This document shows positions 9,225 to 53,580 of a stretch of 64,000 nt of DNA, in pieces (positions within the stretch are counted from its first letter, which is position 1; each line of letters opens with the position of its first letter). Source of the DNA: an uncultured Pseudomonadota bacterium (GTDB lineage: Bacteria > Pseudomonadota > Alphaproteobacteria > RF32 > CAG-239); assembly GCA_902763535.1 (NCBI GenBank), contig CACWSG010000004.1, forward strand, positions 7,568 through 71,567, read 5' to 3'. The translations under genes and the position numbers were made by a program. The notes under the pieces were generated by a model. That model ran no database searches. It was given only the letters and a program-made list of their open reading frames with translations, and was not told the origin of the DNA.

Positions 9225-9351
9225 AAAACACTACCACATAAGGCGCTCTACAATTAGCGCAGTTAAAAACATAAAAACAGAAAATTGCGTGGCACACCCG
9301 CTTAACGCCACATTTTAAGGGCATAATAATCAAAAATTTATTAAAAGCAAA

Positions 9352-10212
9352 TCATTTTTTTAAAATTATACAGCGGTCAATATTGTTTAAATCTTTTAAG
9401 ATTTTTAGGCATTGCATTTTATAGCCTTCTGCCATTTGTTTAATTTGTCTTAGTTGCTGTCCGTCTCCGGCTTCAAGTATAATTATGCCATTTGGCTTTA
9501 ATAACTTTTCGGATACTTGCAAAATTCGATTATAGTCTTTTAAGCCATTTGCTCCTCCGTCTAAGGCAATTAGCGGATCAAAGTCTTTTACTTCTATATC
9601 CAATTTATCAATTTCCGAAGTGGCAATGTATGGAGGATTGCTTACAACCATATCAAAAGGTGCATAATCGCTTAATTTTTCAATTATATCTTCATCAAAC
9701 CAACTGGCTTTAAGCAAATTTAGGCGTTCGGGTTCTATCTTAAGATTTTCCGCATTAAGATCTGTTATTGCCAGTGCGGCATCGGACACATCTATTCCTA
9801 CTCCGGAGACAAAGGGCAAATCGGCCAAAACAGACAAGATAATACAACCTGAACCGACACCAAGTTCTAAAATATTGGCATTTTGAGATGGTGCCAATAA
9901 TTCTATGGCTTTTTCTACCAAAATTTCCGTGTCATATCTTGGTGAAAGAACATCATCAGACACAGCAAAGTCATATTTATAAAATCCTTTTTTGCCGATA
10001 ATTTTATCAATCGGACGATGGTTGCATCTTTCTTTTAGCATATCATCCAAAAGAGCTGCCTGATGTTCAGTTATTTCCATATTGGGGGATATATTTTTGG
10101 GCTCAATTCCTAAAATATGAGCAAGAAGCAATTTTATCTCAAAAACAGACGAATCAATGCCGCTTTCCAGCAGCATTTTCAGTCTGTCGTTTATAAAATC
10201 ATTAATATTCAA
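9352..10212 (-). CDS. prmC: Release-factor glutamine N5-methyltransferase PrmC
   Basis: SAM motif LELGVGSGC and catalytic NPPY (VSNPPYI). 286 aa. Confidence 0.85.
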   Translation of the reverse strand: MNINDFINDRLKMLLESGIDSSVFEIKLLLAHILGIEPKNISPNMEITEHQAALLDDMLKERCNHRPIDKIIGKKGFYKYDFAVSDDVLSPRYDTEILVEKAIELLAPSQNANILELGVGSGCIILSVLADLPFVSGVGIDVSDAALAITDLNAENLKIEPERLNLLKASWFDEDIIEKLSDYAPFDMVVSNPPYIATSEIDKLDIEVKDFDPLIALDGGANGLKDYNRILQVSEKLLKPNGIIILEAGDGQQLRQIKQMAEGYKMQCLKILKDLNNIDRCIILKK

Positions 10213-10224
10213 ATTTTCCTCAAA

Positions 10225-10392
10225 TTAACCATTTTGGTTTTGTGCTTTTTGCAAAGGCTGTTTAGTTGTAGCGCCATTTTTGATTACTGCATTATGAACT
10301 TTATCTTTTAAGTGAGTTATAAAATCTTTAACACCACTCATAGTTCTTTCACTGTCTTGAGGATTTGGCTCTTTATAGTTGTAACTTGTCAT
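10225..10392 (-). CDS. Small hypothetical protein (about 55 aa from ATG 10392; track ORF extends to a TTG at 10413)
   Basis: Only an intergenic ORF between prmC and rpoH. No recognisable motif. Confidence 0.25.
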   Translation of the reverse strand: MTSYNYKEPNPQDSERTMSGVKDFITHLKDKVHNAVIKNGATTKQPLQKAQNQNG

Positions 10393-10437
10393 GACCTTAT
10401 TCCTATCGCTCAAATTTTGTCTATTTATGTCAGTGTA

Positions 10438-11337
10438 TCACTTTTTTACCGATATTGCAAGCAAAACTAATTCTTTTAATTTTTTCATCGCAGCATCTTC
10501 AATTTGACGCACTCTTTCGCGGCTGATGCCAAATTCCTCGCCGACCTCATTCAGTGTTTTCGGGGTGCTTGTCAACAGGCGATTCTTTATGATATATTGC
10601 TCGCGTTCACTGAGTTGAGCCAAACATTTTTTTATAATATCTTTTTTATAAGATGCTTCTTGAGCCAAAGCAATTCTTTCTTCTATATTCTGGCTCTTAT
10701 CGACCAGCAAATCGATTCGCTCTGCCCGCTCATCATCAGAATTAGCAATAGTTGCATTCAATGAAGTATCGCCGCCAAGTCTGCTGTTCATATCCTTGAC
10801 TTCTTGCTCATCAACCACCAATTCATGAGCAATCTGCTTAACTTCTTGAGGCGAAAGTTCCTTGTTTTCATAAATTCCCAAATGCGCTTTCAGTCTTTTA
10901 AGATTATAGAATAGCTTTTTTTGTGCTGCACTGGTACCCATCTTAACCAACGACCAAGACCTTAAAATATAGTCATTGATAGCAGCTTTTATCCACCAAA
11001 TGGCATAAGTTGCCAAGCGCACTTTTTTTGATAAATCAAACTTTTTGACAGCTTGTATCAGCCCAATGTTTGCCTCAGATATAATATCAGCCATGGGCAA
11101 TCCGTAATGGCGATAAGTCATAGCAATCTTGGCAGCCAAGCGCAGGTGTGAGGTTACCAAAGTTTGAGCAGCTTCCATATCGCCCTTTTGTTGTAATTTA
11201 TTTACTAATTCAACTTCCTGTTCTTCGCTCAAAACCGGAAATGTCTTTATTTTATCCAAATAAGCAACTAACGAGTTGTCGTTAATGACAACCGGCAGAT
11301 TGCTTTTTCTTACAACAAGACCATTGTGATCACTCAT
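10438..11337 (-). CDS. rpoH: RNA polymerase sigma-32 factor RpoH
   Basis: Sigma-70 regions 2-4 plus the RpoH box QKKLFYNLKRLK. Confidence 0.9.
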   Translation of the reverse strand: MSDHNGLVVRKSNLPVVINDNSLVAYLDKIKTFPVLSEEQEVELVNKLQQKGDMEAAQTLVTSHLRLAAKIAMTYRHYGLPMADIISEANIGLIQAVKKFDLSKKVRLATYAIWWIKAAINDYILRSWSLVKMGTSAAQKKLFYNLKRLKAHLGIYENKELSPQEVKQIAHELVVDEQEVKDMNSRLGGDTSLNATIANSDDERAERIDLLVDKSQNIEERIALAQEASYKKDIIKKCLAQLSEREQYIIKNRLLTSTPKTLNEVGEEFGISRERVRQIEDAAMKKLKELVLLAISVKK

Positions 11338-45518: not shown

Positions 45519-45593
45519 GCCGCTATAGCTCAGTGGTAGAGCACACCCTTGGTAAGGGTGGGGTCGCAAGTCCGATTCTTGCTAGCGGCACCA
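45519..45593 (+). tRNA. tRNA-Thr (anticodon GGT)
   Basis: Hand-folded cloverleaf: acceptor GCCGCTA/TAGCGGC, D-arm GCTC-AGTGGTA-GAGC, anticodon arm CACCC-TTGGTAA-GGGTG, T-arm GCAAG-TCCGATT-CTTGC, encoded CCA. The T-loop reads TCC rather than the usual TTC. Confidence 0.8.
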
Positions 45594-45810: not shown

Positions 45811-46848
45811 TTACTTTAAATTTTCCTTGAAAAATTGTTCAATTTTATCAAACGGAATTTTGCTCATATTGTCATACAAATCAACATGGTTGGCATCGGG
45901 CACAATATACAATTCTTTGTTATCGCCTTTAAGTTTCTTAAAAGCATCTTCGCTGAAATAGCGGCTATGTGCTTTTTCGCCATGTACTACCAACACCGCA
46001 TTTTTAATAGTGTCGCTATATGCCAAAATCGGTTGAGTAATTAAAGACAATGCCGAAGTGGTATTCCAGTTGCCGTTCGAGTTAATTGAGCGGGGATGAA
46101 AACCGCGCGGTGTTTTATAATATTCAAAATATTCTTTGACAAACAACGGCTCTTCACCGGTCAATTTTTCCGGCAGCCCCGGAGCTTTGGCAAAAGTTCC
46201 TGCTTTATAATCTTTTGTGCGTTGGTTGTTTAGATCCTCACGCAATTTGTATAAATCCTCTTCGCTCATAACATCATTATAGCCTTTGGACGATACTCTG
46301 GTCATGTCATACATCGTTGAGGCTACGGTTGCTTTGATGCGGGTATCTTGTGCCGCGGCATTGAGCCCGAAACCGCCAAATCCGCAAATGCCGATAATAC
46401 CGATTTTGTTTTTATCAACTTGCGGCAAAGTCAGCAAATAATCTACCGCTGCACTAAAATCATCGGTATTGACATCAGGTGAAGCTACATTGCGCGCCTT
46501 ACCACCGGATTCACCGGTAAAAGACGGATCAAAAGCCAAAGTGATAAATCCGCGCTCAGCCAAGGTTTGGGCATATAATCCCGAGGCTTGTTCTTTAACT
46601 GCACCAAACGGACCTGATATGGCAATTGCCGAGCCGTTAATGGCATTTTTGTCTTTAGGCTCATACAAATCACCGGCTAAATCAATGCCAAAGCGATTGG
46701 TAAAACTAACCTTTTTTACTTCAACTTTGTCAGATTTTGCAAACACCTTATCCCAAGACTCGCCATCAGCCGCTATTGCCTTGCCGTTGGGAGCAAATGC
46801 CACACCCAAAGCGGCGATAGAACAAGCGCAAAGATTCTTCAAATTCAT
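45811..46848 (-). CDS. Secreted alpha/beta hydrolase (dienelactone-hydrolase-like, Cys nucleophile elbow)
   Basis: Signal peptide MNLKNLCACSIAALGVAFAPNGKAIA. Nucleophile elbow GICGFGG. C-terminal HVDLY His motif. Confidence 0.7.
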   Translation of the reverse strand: MNLKNLCACSIAALGVAFAPNGKAIAADGESWDKVFAKSDKVEVKKVSFTNRFGIDLAGDLYEPKDKNAINGSAIAISGPFGAVKEQASGLYAQTLAERGFITLAFDPSFTGESGGKARNVASPDVNTDDFSAAVDYLLTLPQVDKNKIGIIGICGFGGFGLNAAAQDTRIKATVASTMYDMTRVSSKGYNDVMSEEDLYKLREDLNNQRTKDYKAGTFAKAPGLPEKLTGEEPLFVKEYFEYYKTPRGFHPRSINSNGNWNTTSALSLITQPILAYSDTIKNAVLVVHGEKAHSRYFSEDAFKKLKGDNKELYIVPDANHVDLYDNMSKIPFDKIEQFFKENLK

Positions 46849-46878
46849 TTTTCACCTCACAAAATTAAAACTATAAGC

Positions 46879-46909
46879 AATATAATTATTAGAGTAAACT
46901 CTAAGTCAA
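46879..46909 (-). promoter_or_regulatory. MerR-type promoter/operator, site C (upstream of the alpha/beta hydrolase)
   Basis: Minus strand: TTGACT-TAGAGTTTACTCTAATAAT-TATATT. 19-nt spacer, perfect dyad TTAGAGT-TT-ACTCTAA. Confidence 0.6.
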
Positions 46910-46980
46910 GTACTTTTAATCATTTGTTAAAAAAACTCTGTTACAAATTGAACTAATTTAAGATTGTAAATGGGCAGATT

Positions 46981-47271
46981 ATGCAAGAATTTATCGGATT
47001 AATCGGATCACTTTGTTTTGCTTTCAGCTCTTGGCCGCAAGCGTGGTATTCATGGCGCCACCAAACAGCCAAAGGGGTTAAATGGTCGTTTATATTTTTG
47101 TGGCTTTCGGGGTCATTTTTCAGCACCATTTATGCAATTTATTATCAAAAATATATGTTGCTGCCCAATTATTTGTGCGGTGGTGCAGGGACTTTGGTAA
47201 TTTTGTATGTGCGAATTGTTGAATTTCGAAAACGTCATGATAAAGTTGATCAAAGGAGAAAAAATGCTTGA
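46981..47271 (+). CDS. PQ-loop (SemiSWEET-like) 3-TM protein
   Basis: 96 aa, SSWPQAWYSWR PQ motif in TM1, 3 predicted TMs. Confidence 0.55.
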   Translation: MQEFIGLIGSLCFAFSSWPQAWYSWRHQTAKGVKWSFIFLWLSGSFFSTIYAIYYQKYMLLPNYLCGGAGTLVILYVRIVEFRKRHDKVDQRRKNA

Positions 47272-47530
47272 GTTTATAATTGATATTTGCGGTTGGATTG
47301 GTGCTTTATCCTATTCAATTTATTCTATTCCTCAAGCGACATCAGCAATTCACTTAGGGCGCACTCAAGGGTTGAGCTCCGGCATGGTGATATTGTTGTT
47401 TGGCGGAGCGTTGTGCAGTTTGATTTATATCTTGCCCGATACTTCGTCACCATTGTTTTATAACTTTGGACTTTCGCTGATATCAGCAACTACTATTTTT
47501 CGTTATCACTTTTGGCCGCGAAAAAAATAG
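47264..47530 (+). CDS. PQ-loop (SemiSWEET-like) 3-TM protein, overlapping the previous gene by 8 nt
   Basis: Start MLEFIID at 47264 after AAAGGAGAA. YSIPQATSAIHLGRTQGLS PQ motif. Confidence 0.55.
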   Translation: MLEFIIDICGWIGALSYSIYSIPQATSAIHLGRTQGLSSGMVILLFGGALCSLIYILPDTSSPLFYNFGLSLISATTIFRYHFWPRKK

Positions 47531-47535
47531 CCGGT

Positions 47536-47796
47536 CTATCGCTTGTTTTGAATAATTATCCATAAAATGGGCAAAGCAAACGCTAAAGAAATACCGTTGC
47601 AAATCATCATTTGCCATGAACTTAAATATACGCCATAAGCAGTCCATAACAGCATGGTTATACAATATATTATATAAGAACTTAGTGATAACCCTGTAGT
47701 GTCGCGTGTTGAAATGGTCTTAATCGCTTGTGGTAAAAATACTACTGCCGAACCGATGCCGGCCAATATGCCCAAACTCTCGCCGATTATACTCAT
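47536..47796 (-). CDS. SemiSWEET/PQ-loop 3-TM protein
   Basis: 86 aa. VFLPQAIKTISTRDTTGLSL is the canonical bacterial SemiSWEET motif. Confidence 0.6.
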   Translation of the reverse strand: MSIIGESLGILAGIGSAVVFLPQAIKTISTRDTTGLSLSSYIIYCITMLLWTAYGVYLSSWQMMICNGISLAFALPILWIIIQNKR

Positions 47797-47872
47797 TTTA
47801 TTAATACCTTTGTAATAATGTTTAGGCTATGATACAGACAAATAAGTTAAATTTTAGTTTAGGTCAAAATAA

Positions 47873-48397
47873 ATGCAGCTTTATCACTACGCTAAAAAAG
47901 GTAATACGGTTTTAAGCAAGGGAATATTATCTTTTGCCGCTAACCCCAAAGCCGACTTGCATTATTATCAAAAACGCTCATGTGCTACCACTCATCAAGG
48001 AATAGTTGCTTGGATGGAAAGCTGCTTTGCGGGACGCTCAAGAGGTATCCGCTGTTTTTCCGAGCCGATAGCTTGGACGAACAAAAGCCTTCATTGCTTG
48101 AAAGATTTTGTTGATGAGTGTGATATGTTCGCCATTGATATTGATGCGCTCAAAAAAGATGGTCTGATAGAGGCGGTTTATGTATCCCCGCCGATTAGTG
48201 ATTTCCCTGAAATAAAAGAAAAACCCGGCATGGATGAAATTTTGTTAAAATTAAATTCGGTTAATGATATTGATTTTTCAGCCGTTGATTGGAGCGTTTG
48301 TGATGATGCAACCGGCAAACGCTTTGCCTTTGTCCGTTATTATTTATTGATAATCAAAGACGGGATAATTCCACCGAAATACATTAAAAAAGTATAA
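47873..48397 (+). CDS. Hypothetical cytoplasmic protein
   Basis: 174-aa ORF in an otherwise empty interval. No motif recognised. Confidence 0.4.
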   Translation: MQLYHYAKKGNTVLSKGILSFAANPKADLHYYQKRSCATTHQGIVAWMESCFAGRSRGIRCFSEPIAWTNKSLHCLKDFVDECDMFAIDIDALKKDGLIEAVYVSPPISDFPEIKEKPGMDEILLKLNSVNDIDFSAVDWSVCDDATGKRFAFVRYYLLIIKDGIIPPKYIKKV

Positions 48398-49003: not shown

Positions 49004-49528
49004 ATGCCGACCTATCTCATTATCGGTAACATATTTTCATTGCTTTCGGCAATATGTATTGCCATATCGGTGGCACAAAAAAGCAAAAAGAAGTTTATGC
49101 TGTGGCAGATTGGTGATACGGCTTTCGGAATAGGCGTTAATATCGCTTTGGTAACTTATGCGGCCTTAGTTATAAGCATAATCTGCCTTATTCGCAACAT
49201 CTTGTCTTATTGCGGCAAACTCACCAAAAGCATCACGGTTATCTTTACTGTTTTGGGGGTGATAATCGGTTTTTTAGTCAACAATCTGGGATTTATCGGG
49301 TGGTTTCCCATAGTCGCTTCTGCCAGTTATACCATTTTTATCTATACCACCAAAAATGAGCAACAAATGCGCTATGCCTCAATTTTGAATATGGTTTTGT
49401 GGTTGGTGCACAATGCTTATGTCGGGGCTTATCCTTCGGCAATAGCCAATGTCATCTTGTGCGGTTGGACAATCTGGCAGATATGGCAATACCATAAAAA
49501 CATTGACAAAAAATCAAAAGACATCTAA
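49004..49528 (+). CDS. YgjV-like inner membrane protein
   Basis: 174 aa with two 3-TM halves. N-terminal IGNIFSLLSAICIAISVAQKSKKK resembles the Imp-YgjV family. Confidence 0.5.
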   Translation: MPTYLIIGNIFSLLSAICIAISVAQKSKKKFMLWQIGDTAFGIGVNIALVTYAALVISIICLIRNILSYCGKLTKSITVIFTVLGVIIGFLVNNLGFIGWFPIVASASYTIFIYTTKNEQQMRYASILNMVLWLVHNAYVGAYPSAIANVILCGWTIWQIWQYHKNIDKKSKDI

Positions 49529-49582
49529 ACTGAGCCAAATTTTACTATTATGCAAATTATGTTTAACCTAAAAAAATAGATT

Positions 49583-49828
49583 ATGTATATAAAAGAGATA
49601 AAAAGAGCGCCCTACATTTGTATAGTGCCAAGCAGCGGGCCTCATGCCATCAAGTGTTATCCGGATGCTAAGACATGGGTCATAAACGGTCAAAAATTCG
49701 GATATTCCAAAAGAGAACAAACCATGATTGCCCCAATGGCTGTTAGTAAGGCTGAAATAGAAAATGCAAAAAAGTTCTTTGAGGAAATTTCTCTCTCCGA
49801 ATGGAAAGGATTATTTCCCTCTGATTGA
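49583..49828 (+). CDS. Small soluble protein, family A copy 1 (unknown function)
   Basis: 81 aa. Paralogous to 51240-51473 (IKRAPYIC.VP..G..A.KCYPDA.T.VING.KFGYS..EQT.I.P). No SD; A-rich leader. Confidence 0.5.
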   Translation: MYIKEIKRAPYICIVPSSGPHAIKCYPDAKTWVINGQKFGYSKREQTMIAPMAVSKAEIENAKKFFEEISLSEWKGLFPSD

Positions 49829-49905
49829 AAGCAGCAAAAGAGATGTTGGCGATGCTCTAGCTTCTCATTTATGCCAATTAAATGTCTAATTAAAAATAAA
49901 AAATT

Positions 49906-50205
49906 ATGACGGTATTATTGATTACAGGCATTAAGGTGGTCTTAATGGTGATGGCAATAATCCTGACGATTATCGCACTTGTTACCATCATAAGGTATGA
50001 TGATTCAGAGTTTTGCGCTCTTGTTGAAGTTTTGGTGCTGTTGGGTGCAATAGTGCTTTTAGTTTTGAAAATATTCCTTCTGATGGAATGGTTCAATCCG
50101 GAGGCAATATCAGCACTCTTGTATGTGATCAAAGTTATCTGGATCGTGCTGGCAATTATCGCTCTTATCGCTAACGGCGTAAGATTATTAACCATTTACT
50201 ATTAA
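49906..50205 (+). CDS. Small 3-TM membrane protein, family B copy 1
   Basis: 99 aa with three hydrophobic spans. Leader taaaaataaaaaattATG. Confidence 0.5.
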   Translation: MTVLLITGIKVVLMVMAIILTIIALVTIIRYDDSEFCALVEVLVLLGAIVLLVLKIFLLMEWFNPEAISALLYVIKVIWIVLAIIALIANGVRLLTIYY

Positions 50206-50224
50206 CCAATAAAAACAAAATATT

Positions 50225-50485
50225 ATGTTTGCAACCGTTTTTACAATCTTACTGGCTGCTATTATAGCAACTTGTGTCGTCGGCATCTGCATTATAGCCA
50301 AGGCAATTAAAGAATTGGGTGCAGGTGTGTTTTCCATTAGCGGCATAATAGCATTACTACTTGTTGTCGCCATTACAGCCTTAGGTATATGTCTATTACA
50401 AGGCTGGGGTGATGCTCGCATCATTGAGCAGTGGATGGCAGGTTTGGGAATTGCCGCCATTGTCATCGGTTTTGCTATTGCCTAA
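50225..50485 (+). CDS. Small 3-TM membrane protein, family B copy 2
   Basis: 86 aa with three hydrophobic spans. Leader aataaaaacaaaatattATG. Confidence 0.5.
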   Translation: MFATVFTILLAAIIATCVVGICIIAKAIKELGAGVFSISGIIALLLVVAITALGICLLQGWGDARIIEQWMAGLGIAAIVIGFAIA

Positions 50486-50534
50486 ATTGTGGGAATAGGA
50501 ATAATACTGATGATAAAAAACAAATAATCAATTT

Positions 50535-50559
50535 GCTCGCTTGAAAAAGCGAGCTTTTT
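50535..50559 (+). terminator. Intrinsic terminator inside the small-gene cluster
   Basis: gctcgctt-gaaa-aagcgagc followed by ttttt. Confidence 0.65.
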
Positions 50560-50642
50560 GTCGTTTAAAAACATTGACAAAAAACAAAAAAACTAATAAC
50601 TTGAGAACAATTCACATTATTTATAAATTAAATTTTAACAAT

Positions 50643-50921
50643 ATGGAAAAAGTAGTTGTAACTATTGTTTTCGCAGTGGTCATCACTGTCATTGCCGCAG
50701 TTTTCGTATTTTTATGGAGACTGATGGAAAATCACAAAGATTTTTCTGTTCTGTCAGGCTTAGCACTTCTGGAGCTGGTGCTCGGTTTCGCCTTTCTGTC
50801 CTATTGGGGATTGGCTTGGGCGACAACCGCGCTGAAAATTGTAACAGTTGTGTTGTATGCAGTGATTCTATTTCCGGCGGTGTTTCGCTGGTGCAAACGA
50901 CCGAAAGAAAGTAATGTTTAA
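50643..50921 (+). CDS. Small 3-TM membrane protein, family B copy 3
   Basis: Start MEKVVVTIVF at 50643. The track ORF from 50541 spans the terminator and is unlikely. 92 aa. Confidence 0.45.
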   Translation: MEKVVVTIVFAVVITVIAAVFVFLWRLMENHKDFSVLSGLALLELVLGFAFLSYWGLAWATTALKIVTVVLYAVILFPAVFRWCKRPKESNV

Positions 50922-50936
50922 CTAAAAACAAAAATT

Positions 50937-51227
50937 ATGAATGCTTTAATTATTATCGGGGCGATAGTTATCATCGCTTTCTTTATTTGGTGCATTTGCA
51001 CCCTCGCTCCATTCTACAAAGATGAGGGCTGGAACTTCTTCAATGTCGGCACAATTGCCAGCTTTGTGATGCTGATAGCCATTGTTATATTGACAGCGGC
51101 TTATTTCATCGGCTGTTGGCAATGGCTGACTCCAAATGTTATGTCGACAGTTTTTCTGTGTGCGTTGGTTTGGTTGGGTGTATACCTCGTAGCCATCGCC
51201 TTTAGTATGCGAGATAAAAAACAATAA
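50937..51227 (+). CDS. Small 3-TM membrane protein, family B copy 4
   Basis: 96 aa with three hydrophobic spans. Leader taactaaaaacaaaaattATG. Confidence 0.5.
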   Translation: MNALIIIGAIVIIAFFIWCICTLAPFYKDEGWNFFNVGTIASFVMLIAIVILTAAYFIGCWQWLTPNVMSTVFLCALVWLGVYLVAIAFSMRDKKQ

Positions 51228-51239
51228 AAAATAAAAATT

Positions 51240-51473
51240 ATGGTTATCATCAATGAAATAAAGCGGGCGCCCTACATCTGCACGGTTCCCGGCGGTGGTG
51301 TCAGAGCAACCAAATGTTATCCGGATGCGCAAACTTATGTCATAAATGGCAAAAAGTTTGGGTATTCTCAAAAAGAGCAAACTCTGATAACACCAATTGA
51401 TGCATCGGGAAGCGACATAAGTGCCGCTGAAGTTGCAATAAAGGCGATAAAAAATTTGAGCCTCTCAAGTTAA
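51240..51473 (+). CDS. Small soluble protein, family A copy 2
   Basis: 77 aa, paralogue of 49583-49828. Leader aataaaaaataaaaattATG. Confidence 0.5.
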   Translation: MVIINEIKRAPYICTVPGGGVRATKCYPDAQTYVINGKKFGYSQKEQTLITPIDASGSDISAAEVAIKAIKNLSLSS

Positions 51474-51546
51474 AAAAAGTATTAGTAGTTTTCTTGATAC
51501 TTTTTGGGGTGTCATTTTTTAAAATCGGTAAAGAGTAACTCCTCTC

Positions 51547-51577
51547 AGCTCGCTTGTTAAAAGCGAGCTTTTTTTTA
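51547..51577 (+). terminator. Intrinsic terminator ending the small-gene cluster
   Basis: agctcgctt-gttaa-aagcgagct followed by T8. The stem sequence is the same as in the 50535 terminator. Confidence 0.65.
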
Positions 51578-51588
51578 TTAAAATAACA

Positions 51589-51607
51589 TTGAAAATTTCA
51601 AAGCTCT
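51589..51607. repeat. 19-nt direct repeat, left copy (ttgaaaatttcaaagctct)
   Basis: Exact match to 53321-53339. Brackets the two-gene effector module. Confidence 0.9.
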
Positions 51608-51672
51608 CGGGGTTAAATATAAACAAGAACTCTTAACTCTTATTTATGAAATGTTACAATTTGTGATTGTTA

Positions 51673-52308
51673 CTAAAATTCCGATAAACCGACGCAGTTG
51701 TGATAATCGCTATCAGCATTTTCAAAATTACGCCAAGTTTCATAACCATAATAAGTAAAGCAACGTGCTTTATTTTCCTCTTTTTTGCAAGCCATGCTAT
51801 ATTCACCGATTGCTTTTTTCACTTCCCCATCATACCAATACATTTTGCAGTGACATTCATCACAATATTTTAAATTAAAACGCAAAGTTTTTTGTTTATC
51901 GTCTAAACAGTAGTTTACAACATAATTCCCATTACCAGTACTATGAAATACCACCTCTTCTCCTAACCCCACATGACAAGTTACTTCTGTATAATCATTA
52001 TTATGTTGTTCACAAAAAAAATTTAAGTCTTCTTTTCTTCCTGTATTTTTTTCCATGATTGTTCCCATACATCCAGCATTACCGCAATTCGCAAATGATG
52101 TCGGAAATTTGGAAGAACCTGAAAGGTTAATATTTAAACTATATCCTTTTGTATCTCCTTTATAAGCATATTCAAAAACACCATCATTATCGCTGATTGT
52201 TTCGTATTTTTCAACCTTCAGAGCAAAACACGGCCAATCTTGCGGTAAAGCATAAGCTCTGCCGCAAGAAAGGACCATAAACAACATTAAAATAATTTTA
52301 TTTTTCAA
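51673..52308 (-). CDS. Cys-rich secreted protein (candidate immunity/partner protein)
   Basis: TTG start at 52308 preceded by TAAGGGA. Signal peptide MKNKIILMLFMVLSCGRAYA. More than 12 Cys. Overlaps the upstream gene by 11 nt. Confidence 0.55.
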   Translation of the reverse strand: MKNKIILMLFMVLSCGRAYALPQDWPCFALKVEKYETISDNDGVFEYAYKGDTKGYSLNINLSGSSKFPTSFANCGNAGCMGTIMEKNTGRKEDLNFFCEQHNNDYTEVTCHVGLGEEVVFHSTGNGNYVVNYCLDDKQKTLRFNLKYCDECHCKMYWYDGEVKKAIGEYSMACKKEENKARCFTYYGYETWRNFENADSDYHNCVGLSEF

Positions 52309-53290
52309 ATTCCCTTAACCTTGTTTCAATCCATAAAAATTTCGTTTTCAAGTCTGGATCATTTATTTTACCATAATCCATATAATACATACCATTTTTA
52401 TCCTTTTCAATATGCTTGAAAAATTTATTCATATAATCAATTCCTGTTCTGTGAATTGCTGCTAATAATCCGGTATCTGTTATGGTAAAATTAAATTTTA
52501 ATCCTTTATATTTGGAACCTACATATTTTGTTTCTCCAAAGTGAGACAAATATCTATATTGAACTTTCATATATTCGTCTAATATTTGTTCCTGTATAGA
52601 TGGATTATTTAAAAAATCTTCAACAGAATATATACCATTTTTTCCGGTCCATTTATTGTCTTTTGTTAAATATCCTGTATCAATTAGTCCATCTCTGCGT
52701 ATCTGGTACATTCCTAAAGCACCAATTCCCCCACCTGAAGTATTAGTTTTATTATAATTGTTCTTACTTTCCTTATATCCTAATAAGTTACGCATTTTCT
52801 TTGAAAAAATGTAATGTTCATCTTTATGATTTTTATTTCGTATTTCCGATTCATTATTTTTAGCATATTGGGGCAAGCCGGATAAATCAACTTTCGTCAC
52901 ATCAGATTGTTTTACTCTATCCGATTGATATGGCTCTGCCCAGCAACGACAATTATAATCTTCACCGGGATTTCCGCCTTCAGGCGGAATATATTTGTTA
53001 AATATTTTCCCCTCACGTTCAGCGTGTGCGCCGCGAACTTTATCATCTCCTTTCGTGCGCCAAATATAATAATTTTCCGGATTTTCTTTTATATCATAAG
53101 CCAATATCTCTTTGAGTTTCGGATTGGGCGTATTTTCACTTTCAACATCTATTTGTTGCATATCCGAAACGGTTTCGGCATCTCTTGGATCAAGATAATA
53201 CCAATCTGTTTCTCCTTTTCTCTTAGAATCACGTCTAATCGGCTTAAATCCATTCATTCTTTGATATAAATCATTATATAATTCGTTCAT
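52298..53290 (-). CDS. MuF-domain (Phage_Mu_F/SPP1 gp7-like) protein fused to a lysozyme-like/lytic-transglycosylase-like C-terminal domain
   Basis: IWRTKGDDKVRGAHAEREGKIF....PGEDYNCRCWAEPY matches the MuF core (W.T..D.rVR..H..l.G......P....nCRC). The C-terminus has KES-(18 aa)-GALGMYQI, resembling the SLT E-S...GA.GLMQ motif. Preferred start is MNELYN at 53290 after GGAAAGGA; the track start is 53308. Confidence 0.6.
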   Translation of the reverse strand: MNELYNDLYQRMNGFKPIRRDSKRKGETDWYYLDPRDAETVSDMQQIDVESENTPNPKLKEILAYDIKENPENYYIWRTKGDDKVRGAHAEREGKIFNKYIPPEGGNPGEDYNCRCWAEPYQSDRVKQSDVTKVDLSGLPQYAKNNESEIRNKNHKDEHYIFSKKMRNLLGYKESKNNYNKTNTSGGGIGALGMYQIRRDGLIDTGYLTKDNKWTGKNGIYSVEDFLNNPSIQEQILDEYMKVQYRYLSHFGETKYVGSKYKGLKFNFTITDTGLLAAIHRTGIDYMNKFFKHIEKDKNGMYYMDYGKINDPDLKTKFLWIETRLREFEK

Positions 53291-53320
53291 TTTTACTGTC
53301 CTTTCCATAAAAAAAGAGCT

Positions 53321-53339
53321 TTGAAAATTTCAAAGCTCT
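53321..53339. repeat. 19-nt direct repeat, right copy, embedded in a perfect 12-bp-arm palindrome
   Basis: agagctttgaaa-a-tttcaaagctct (53315-53339) flanked by an A7 run. The right arm plus centre equals the left-copy repeat. Confidence 0.9.
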
Positions 53340-53580
53340 TTGGATTAAAAAATATGGCGGAAAAACGGGTACAAAAAAATCCCGCCATTTTTTATGACAG
53401 GATTTTCACCCACTCATCCACCATACTGATTTTTATATCATCAGCCGACGGCTTAAGTCAAGGTGCTGACCTCTATTATCCACAAAAAGTTGATGTTTGT
53501 AACATTATTCGCTTTTTTGCTATGAAAAATAAAATTTCCTTAAAATAAAATCATTTATCGTATAAGTTGTAACCAATAAC

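Follow-up and report, generated by a model that had tools for sequence, protein, structure and literature searches.

How are genes without a recognizable ribosome-binding signal maintained in a genome where most genes possess such a signal, and what might they do there? This question is raised by a cluster of six small genes located on the plus strand at positions 49583-51577 of a 64,000-nt stretch of bacterial DNA (hereafter the window, whose numbering is used throughout unless the handle of another locus is given). A preliminary description, based on the sequence alone, had recognized two types of encoded proteins, A (81 and 77 aa) and B (four proteins with three transmembrane helices each), preceded by A-rich leaders devoid of a Shine-Dalgarno (SD) sequence. 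All six open reading frames (ORFs) are present as described, including the sizes of the A proteins and the three helices of the Bs. Comparison of the cluster with related loci shows that its genes behave as independently swappable cassettes, with the A-rich leader as the cassette boundary. As for the function, which is putative, we favor the view that the region is a strain-variable island of orphan immunity-type cassettes, and we assign to it a probability of about 0.35.

Organization of the six-gene cluster

The six ORFs, all on the plus strand, are arranged in two homologous modules, A1-B1-B2 and B3-B4-A2, each running from a promoter to a terminator. In the first module, A1 (49583-49828; 81 aa), encoding a soluble protein, is followed by B1 (49906-50205; 99 aa) and B2 (50225-50485; 86 aa), both encoding three-helix membrane proteins. 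In the second one, two more genes for three-helix membrane proteins, B3 (50643-50921; 92 aa) and B4 (50937-51227; 96 aa), precede A2 (51240-51473; 77 aa), a paralogue of A1.

There is one promoter-like region per module. The predicted promoter P1 of module 1 (49503-49531, plus strand) comprises a -35 element TTGACA (49503-49508), a 17-nt spacer and a -10 element TAAACT (49526-49531), with 10 of 12 matches in a consensus scan, and it overlaps the 3′ end of the YgjV gene. The predicted promoter P2 of module 2 (50574-50602, plus strand) is homologous to P1 and has the same -35 hexamer (50574-50579) combined with a weak -10 element TAACTT (50597-50602), read by eye. About 90 nt upstream of A1 and upstream of B3 are homologous to each other, including the sequence 'AACATTGACAAAAAA', and the corresponding region around P1 is also homologous to the module promoters in the related loci L005, L016 and L018. 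Downstream of B2 lies the intrinsic terminator T1 (50535-50554, plus strand), GCTCGCTT-GAAA-AAGCGAGC followed by a T run; the terminator T2 downstream of A2 (51547-51569, plus strand) has the same stem, GCTCGCTT/AAGCGAGC. Given the homologous promoter regions and the common terminator stem, the locus therefore consists of two duplicated promoter-to-terminator modules; the duplication had already been proposed from the terminators, and it now embraces the promoter regions as well. An Rfam scan of the window matched only a tRNA (45519-45590).

The A-rich leaders are devoid of Shine-Dalgarno sequences

Every cassette starts with a linker of about 20-30 nt that is A-rich, G-free and fits the consensus ..TAAYY.ATAAAAAYAAAAWWTT-ATG. 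In module 1, the linkers of A1, B1 and B2 occupy positions 49557-49582 (ttatgtttaacctaaaaaaatagatt), 49877-49905 (attaaatgtctaattaaaaataaaaaatt) and 50206-50224 (accaataaaaacaaaatatt) of the plus strand, respectively. The B3 leader, singled out previously as A/T-rich but less regular, is A/T-rich indeed and also free of G.

The capacity for SD pairing was evaluated as the best pairing of the region from -22 to -3 with the anti-SD sequence in the six genes vs. 41 other genes of the window. In all six, the pairing energy ranged from +0.5 to +1.6 kcal/mol, whereas the 41 other genes showed a median of -5.8 kcal/mol, with 73% of them at or below -4 kcal/mol (Mann-Whitney p=5e-5). Likewise, positions -15 to -5 contain no G in any of the six leaders vs. 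a mean of 3.05 in the background genes. The contrast with the rest of the window noted at the outset is thus borne out: leaders without an SD are the exception in this genome segment, and the host ribosome is presumably SD-competent.

To see which positions are conserved, we compared 21 cassette starts, taken from the window and from four related contigs (five genomes in total); 14 distinct leaders were obtained. G accounts for only 2.9% of their positions -20 to -1. All 14 bear A at -13 and -11, a purine at -3 and T at -1, and A is nearly invariant at -12, -7, -6 and -5. Initiation regions of Bacteroidia also function without an SD and carry A at -3, -6 and -11 to -14; such A-rich unstructured regions work in Bacteroidia and raise initiation in E. 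coli too (Baez et al. 2019, PMC6847099). The leaders studied here resemble them in the absence of the SD, in the enrichment of A at -3, -6 and -11 to -13/-14 and in the very low G content, but differ in that the signature is confined to one island, other host genes mostly using the SD. The idea of a distinct, Bacteroidia-like initiation signal has therefore held up: the leaders deviate from the host norm, with A at -3, -6 and -11 to -13.

Cassettes are gained, lost and swapped at the linkers

The relatives of the window differ from it in cassette content. Strains L010-L015 have the order A1-B2 | B3-B4-A2 and lack exactly the B1 cassette (window positions 49909-50209); the alignment places the crossover inside 'ATTAAAAA' of the linker, so that the B1 linker forms the left and the B2 linker the right crossover point of this presence/absence difference. 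L005, which belongs to the metagenome-assembled genome (MAG) RUG14511, possesses a single module, A2-B1-B2, where the A2 cassette occupies the A1 position. Other arrangements include A2-B4′-B (with a 104-aa B) behind a YgjV remnant in L016, B1-B-B2′ (with a 94-aa B and no A) in L018, A alone in L038, and six cassettes, including a new 92-aa B, in L019 and L020. The breakpoints lie at linkers both where B1 is present or absent and where A1 and A2 are swapped. A-B-B synteny, which had been suggested as a search pattern, recurs in L005 and L016, while A-only and B-only modules are found elsewhere. A2 thus occurs with B1-B2, with B3-B4 and with B4′-B, and there are modules devoid of A or of B; therefore, no fixed A-B pairing exists.

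The absence of fixed pairing bears on the possibility that the cluster is a toxin-antitoxin or addiction module, in which the hydrophobic Bs would act as toxins that depolarise the membrane, with the SD-less leaders keeping their level low and A neutralising or regulating them. A small hydrophobic protein with a poor translation signal is indeed reminiscent of membrane toxins, and A is small, soluble and either first or last in the operon, as antitoxins and regulators often are. However, the A-B combinations are shuffled freely, to the point that A is missing from L018 and B from L038; the structural model of A is unlike known antitoxin folds; and the Bs, with 86-104 aa and three helices, exceed typical type I toxins. 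Taken together, these data make an addiction module improbable.

An overlapping 41-aa ORF (49764-49889, plus strand) ends with ..NV* just upstream of the B1 linker, and its last 28 nt match the 3′ end of B3 together with the B4 linker at 75% identity (repeat D7). This ORF appears to be what is left of the 3′ end of an earlier cassette.

The gene to which the island is anchored is plastic, too. In L016 (2566-2700), YgjV is reduced to a 44-aa remnant composed of its N-terminus and C-terminus, the module being intact. In L018 (4362-5001), the module follows a 174-aa gene, a homologue of the window gene at 47873-48397, with neither sodC nor a second YgjV in between.

The island nearly always lies 3′ of a co-oriented YgjV gene, whose 3′ end is overlapped by the predicted promoter, as would be expected if the small membrane proteins were housekeeping accessories modulating the adjacent YgjV-type protein or the envelope (given the sodC neighborhood), with the leader setting a low expression level. 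Against this stand the module that persists beside the YgjV remnant in L016 and the one that follows a different gene in L018, an hhalign probability of only 1% for similarity between B and YgjV, and the extreme strain variability and inter-species exchange, which are unexpected of accessory subunits; an accessory role appears highly improbable.

Recent exchange between diverged genomes

The flanks of the island are 81-84% identical at the DNA level to those in MAG RUG14511 (L005), labelled 'uncultured proteobacterium', and this places the host in that low-GC alphaproteobacterial group. The cassettes themselves are far more similar. Between the window and L005, they show 96.6-98.8% identity (98% for B1), whereas YgjV, the upstream 174-aa gene and the downstream bPH_2 gene show 81-84%; the proportion of synonymous differences (pS) is 0-0.06 in the cassettes vs. 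0.53 in YgjV. Near-identical cassettes within diverged flanks indicate a recent exchange of cassettes between diverged genomes. In addition, each of the 41 reference genes of the window is closer to the host in synonymous codon usage than the cassettes are. The suspected horizontal mobility is thus well founded.

A further discontinuity was observed outside the cluster: rightwards of 47847, L010-L015 share 97% identity with the window, and to the left of this point (segment compared, 46001-47846) blastn detected no similarity between them and the window, which may be a mosaic left of about 47847.

A lack of conservation as coding sequence would have spoken against the genes altogether, and the opposite was found. 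In close comparisons, the ratio of nonsynonymous to synonymous substitution rates (dN/dS) was 0-0.4 for A1, A2, B1 and B4, on few substitutions, and for B2 and B3 the changes were so few that the ratios are uninformative. Distant pairs gave values of about 0.1 for A (vs. the Bacteroidetes copy described below), 0.25 for B4 (vs. the L016 copy), 0.38 for B1 and 0.18 for B2. These ratios (0.1-0.4; about 0.1-0.4 for A1) show the ORFs to be coding and under purifying selection. A value above 1 for B3 vs. L019 was discarded as an artefact of a C-terminal frameshift variant, since both L019 and L020 carry a frameshifted B3 of 87 aa. B2 of the window is also altered. Relative to L005, L010 and other strains, a TCA-to-TAA change at 50483-50485 has removed its last 14 residues, which are present in all relatives (homologues reach 100 aa; the ancestral stop lies at 50525-50527). 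This nonsense change may represent early pseudogenisation or a tolerated shortening.

The A family

A1 and A2 are evidently paralogous, with 57% identity (E=1e-30). A word-indexed search of 5.8 billion proteins found six A clusters, and an exhaustive profile search of 1.84 billion representatives gave 30 matches, about 27 of them genuine members. Three large proteins, P0032, P0037 and P0038, were dropped as matching the A profile via unrelated repeats only (P0032 and P0038 were inspected). The family core reads (V/I)xRAPYIC(T)VPxxGxxAxxCYPDA...G.K.GYS...T.I, with two invariant cysteines, and its motif PYIC..P..G..A..CYPDA (in a fuller form, PYICTVP..G..A..CYPDA) is kept down to about 30% identity.

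The AlphaFold2 (AF2) model of A1, built from a 30-sequence alignment, has a predicted local distance difference test score (pLDDT) of 80 and comprises four short strands, a long conserved loop with both cysteines and a C-terminal helix. In a Foldseek search with this model, no match below E=0.1 was obtained in PDB or BFVD and no similarity to known antitoxin folds was seen; nor did a PDB sequence search with the A profile reveal a relative. When the 30 family members were scanned one by one against the family libraries, none matched. So far as the PDB and BFVD libraries show, the modelled A structure represents an orphan fold.

Where does the family occur? Six of the seven genome loci carrying A belong to uncultured proteobacterial or alphaproteobacterial MAGs from rumen and gut, and the seventh to a Bacteroidetes MAG, RUG12980 (L003 4991-8210), whose A gene is 65-67% identical to A1. 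This gene lies about 1.5 kb downstream of the genes for a 2933-aa Rhs/TcdB-type toxin and its neighbor, a 141-aa multi-helix membrane protein, and of a DUF4248 gene, and it lies upstream of the gene for a 1064-aa protein. It represents a cross-phylum occurrence of an otherwise alphaproteobacterial family.

From the SD-less leaders, an origin in Bacteroidota or in phages had been considered. The former, though conceivable, is not supported by the distribution of the genes: one homologue of A lies in a Bacteroidetes MAG, the other six of the seven A loci are proteobacterial, and B was found only in contigs syntenic with the window or closely related to it. The latter finds no support: relatives of A were not found in IMG/VR, INPHARED phages, PHROGs or BFVD, nor in PLSDB plasmids. 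A scan of viral contigs with the promoter motif gave scattered matches, which were not inspected and are taken for chance hits of a low-complexity motif.

These searches also matter for the possibility that the cassettes serve in anti-phage defence or exclusion, the small membrane proteins acting as abortive-infection or superinfection-exclusion factors and A as a sensor or regulator. Strain variability, horizontal exchange and diversification are typical of defence genes, small membrane proteins are common effectors of such systems, and the adjoining gene bears phage-derived MuF and lysozyme-like regions (see below). Nevertheless, PADLOC gave no match, neither a phage homologue nor a prophage context was found, A and B are not co-inherited as a unit, and a sensor-effector system would hardly be expected to include B-only modules with three different Bs. 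A defence role of this kind seems to us unlikely.

The B family

Each of the four B proteins has three hydrophobic helices according to hydropathy analysis. The AF2 model of B4 also shows three helices, at a low confidence (pLDDT 64; predicted template modelling score 0.38) that made it too poor for a structure search. Mutual identities among B1-B4 are 15-29%, with BLASTP E-values from 0.001 to >10; against composition-preserving shuffles, some pairs score above and others do not. The relatedness of the Bs rests mainly on their length, topology and a Trp motif after helix 2, which reads EWFNPE, GWGDAR, YWGLAW and WQWLTPN in the window and NWGNIT, NGWGDPQ and FNWIAPC in relatives. The term 'six small paralogous genes' used earlier is therefore apt for the A pair and only weakly so for the Bs.

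From the positive-inside rule, the Bs are predicted to be oriented N-out, C-in, with a cytoplasmic C-terminus and the Trp loop in the periplasm. Their homologues were found only in contigs that are syntenic with, or closely related to, the window, so that B is a lineage-restricted family of three-helix membrane proteins. An assignment of B as a fragment or relative of YgjV or of a SemiSWEET-like three-helix bundle was rejected (hhalign probability 1%).

The neighboring variable slot and a second array

The cluster is preceded by sodC and YgjV and followed by a MuF-like gene, two bPH_2 genes and an acyltransferase gene. Just 3′ of it, two copies of a palindrome-containing element (51580-51617 and 53312-53349; sequence AAAGAGCTTTGAAAATTTCAAAGCTCTTT), with the shape of a bidirectional terminator, flank a reverse-strand toxin-like slot (51673-53308), which lies outside the six genes and encodes a 336-aa MuF/lysozyme-like protein and a 211-aa Cys-rich protein. 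In the 336-aa protein (52298-53308, minus strand), residues 76-124 correspond to a partial MuF/SPP1 gp7 region (Pfam, 30.5 bits at a cut-off of 29.6) and residues 170-258 resemble a PHROG 'baseplate hub/tail lysozyme' family, with no prophage around. The 211-aa protein (51673-52308, minus strand), whose gene overlaps the former one, has an N-terminal signal peptide or a possible lipobox. The GC content at third codon positions is 0.23-0.25 in both genes vs. a window mean of 0.38. By these sequence features, the two genes resemble a polymorphic toxin-immunity pair.

In L005, the copies of the element (9276-9366 and 10557-10647) bracket a different insert, encoding a 250-aa protein (9778-10530, minus strand) with a serum amyloid A domain (PF00277, E=2.7e-14) and, after this gene, two small membrane-anchored Cys-containing proteins. 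L019 and L020 have an empty slot and keep all A/B cassettes. The absence of the slot in L019 and L020 and its different content in L005 show that the A/B modules are independent of the MuF gene, although they do sit in a hotspot for toxin-like cargo.

The same observations speak to the idea of a holin-type lysis cassette tied to the neighboring lysozyme-like MuF protein. Class I holins have a size and a three-helix topology like those of the Bs, and the convergent neighbor contains a tail-lysozyme-like region; yet the cassettes of L019 and L020 persist in the absence of the MuF slot, the two sets of genes are convergent and separately transcribed, and no endolysin gene is present in the operon. 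Moreover, a genome may carry four to six different Bs, which show no dual-start motif and have short C-termini without a long charged stretch, and there is no prophage. We regard a lysis cassette as extremely improbable.

A second, larger hypervariable array was observed in related alphaproteobacterial MAGs, usually directly upstream of rpsB-tsf (L008 5884-10387; L040 1635-6325; L041 3554-7982; L007 6950-10341; L004 1898-3377; L006 7549-8694). It comprises up to about 11 co-directional genes, and its content varies between genomes: A-family copies, an 'EYITVNKDGxFVGGKPAT' family of 140-230 aa, 146-aa single-helix proteins, and DUF3419/methyltransferase-like and PP-binding-like proteins. The C-termini of unrelated proteins read ..QQIKR, ..AQNKR or ..TQQNKR throughout this array because a conserved junction, 'ACAAAACAAAAGATAAAAGG..ATG', runs across each 3′ end into the following start.

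Putative function of the island

Several features together favor the reading of the cluster as an island of orphan immunity-type cassettes: its units are autonomous, extremely strain-variable and capable of sweeping across species, and they lie beside toxin-like cassettes; small three-helix membrane proteins have counterparts in the immunity proteins BmiA and PmiA; and orphan immunity arrays with repetitive intergenic sequences are already known (rAID-1). The genomic context agrees with this, given the alternative toxin-like modules next door and the position of the Bacteroidetes A copy downstream of an Rhs/TcdB toxin gene with a membrane-protein neighbor.

Other data weigh against such a function. 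No cognate toxin was identified, and no bacteriocin-like gene is present within the modules. No recombinase family was detected within 5 kb on either side in the window and six syntenic contigs. Scans of A and B against Pfam (which we assume to hold the curated immunity (Imm) families), NCBIfam, PADLOC and PHROGs matched no family, so that the initial impression of unfamiliar proteins persists for both A and B, and for A also at the level of the structural model. The rigid sequence motif of A is suggestive of a conserved active or binding site rather than of an immunity surface that evolves rapidly. Finally, A is also found in the rpsB arrays among genes unlike immunity genes (DUF3419/methyltransferase-like and PP-binding-like).

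In our reading, the island consists of two duplicated mini-operons, in each of which a predicted promoter of the sigma-70 type is followed by two to three small-gene cassettes without promoters of their own and by an intrinsic terminator. The linker would have a double role. As an SD-independent initiation region, unstructured and with A at -3, -6 and -11 to -13, it would recruit the ribosome, probably via ribosomal protein S1 and the lack of structure. As a short stretch of homology, it would permit cassettes to be inserted, deleted and exchanged; the crossover position is seen in the alignments, and the event itself would be a recombination between linkers. The cargo genes would act independently of one another. 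A is predicted to be a small, beta-rich protein of the cytoplasm whose two-cysteine motif is invariant, and the Bs to be inner-membrane proteins of three helices with a conserved Trp in the predicted periplasmic loop. Together, they may constitute a pool of orphan immunity-type proteins directed against competitors' toxins, B against those acting on the membrane or envelope and A against a cytoplasmic toxin, and rumen and gut Alphaproteobacteria would exchange this pool by horizontal transfer.

The second array invites a broader proposal, which we find tempting but doubtful. The lineage to which these rumen and gut Alphaproteobacteria belong may have a hitherto undescribed cassette system with no (or an unknown) recombinase, in which the G-free A-rich linker is both the start signal and the junction; it would build hypervariable arrays of two or more kinds, among them the sodC-YgjV island and the rpsB array with its 'ACAAAACAAAAGATAAAAGG' linker, and would spread A and B as new immunity families across species and even phyla.

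Comparison with known systems

Arrays of orphan immunity genes with repetitive intergenic sequences (rAID-1) have been described in gut Bacteroidales (Ross et al. 2019, doi 10.1101/471110). The cluster resembles them in being a co-directional array of small unrelated or highly diverged genes separated by repetitive intergenic sequences (here, the conserved linkers), in strain variation, horizontal transfer and gut habitat, and in the presence of toxin-like genes nearby. Unlike them, it has no XerD-like (XerD-family) tyrosine recombinase at its 5′ end and no gene with a match among known immunity families. Its operons are limited to two or three genes in an alphaproteobacterial host that uses the SD, a short A-rich leader stands in place of an integron-like repeat, and protection is only putative.

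Three-helix membrane proteins are familiar as immunity proteins, among them those for E1-type pore-forming colicins and MceB for microcin E492. Immunity to colicin M-like toxins is conferred by BmiA (three helices) and PmiA (four helices), whose sequences, apart from a short periplasmic motif, are hardly conserved (PMC5277000). The Bs, with 86-104 aa, three helices and little conservation except an invariant Trp in the predicted periplasmic loop, are of a similar type, but they show no sequence similarity to these proteins, no cognate bacteriocin gene is adjacent, and several different Bs stand in tandem.

With integron cassettes, the units share the promoterless single-gene format, probable expression from a common upstream promoter, and gain and loss as units at a repeated boundary. 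The differences are that no IntI integrase is found in the neighborhood, no attC-type imperfect inverted repeat is reported at the junctions, the boundary is a 20-30-nt A-rich leader, and the crossover looks like short-homology recombination. As to class I holins, only the topology of the Bs fits, and the fixed cognate two-gene unit of type II toxin-antitoxin pairs is not seen here, A and B combinations being reshuffled between genomes. The MuF polymorphic toxins of temperate phages (Jamet et al. 2017, PMC5576092) are comparable with the neighboring slot only, which lies outside the six-gene cluster. There, a MuF-type region is joined to a different C-terminal region and the small gene after the 336-aa gene may be an immunity partner, but the MuF domain is only partial and no prophage is present.

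If our interpretation is correct, one short sequence does two jobs, allowing both the SD-free expression of foreign genes in an SD-using host and the modular shuffling of these genes. Two new protein families, one of which (A) has no detectable fold relatives, would then circulate in poorly studied uncultured rumen and gut Alphaproteobacteria, probably in strain-level competition, and the 14 linker variants would provide a natural test set for SD-independent initiation outside Bacteroidota. Strain-variable cassette or immunity-type islands already have precedents, and what is unusual here is the dual-purpose A-rich linker together with two uncharacterised protein families.

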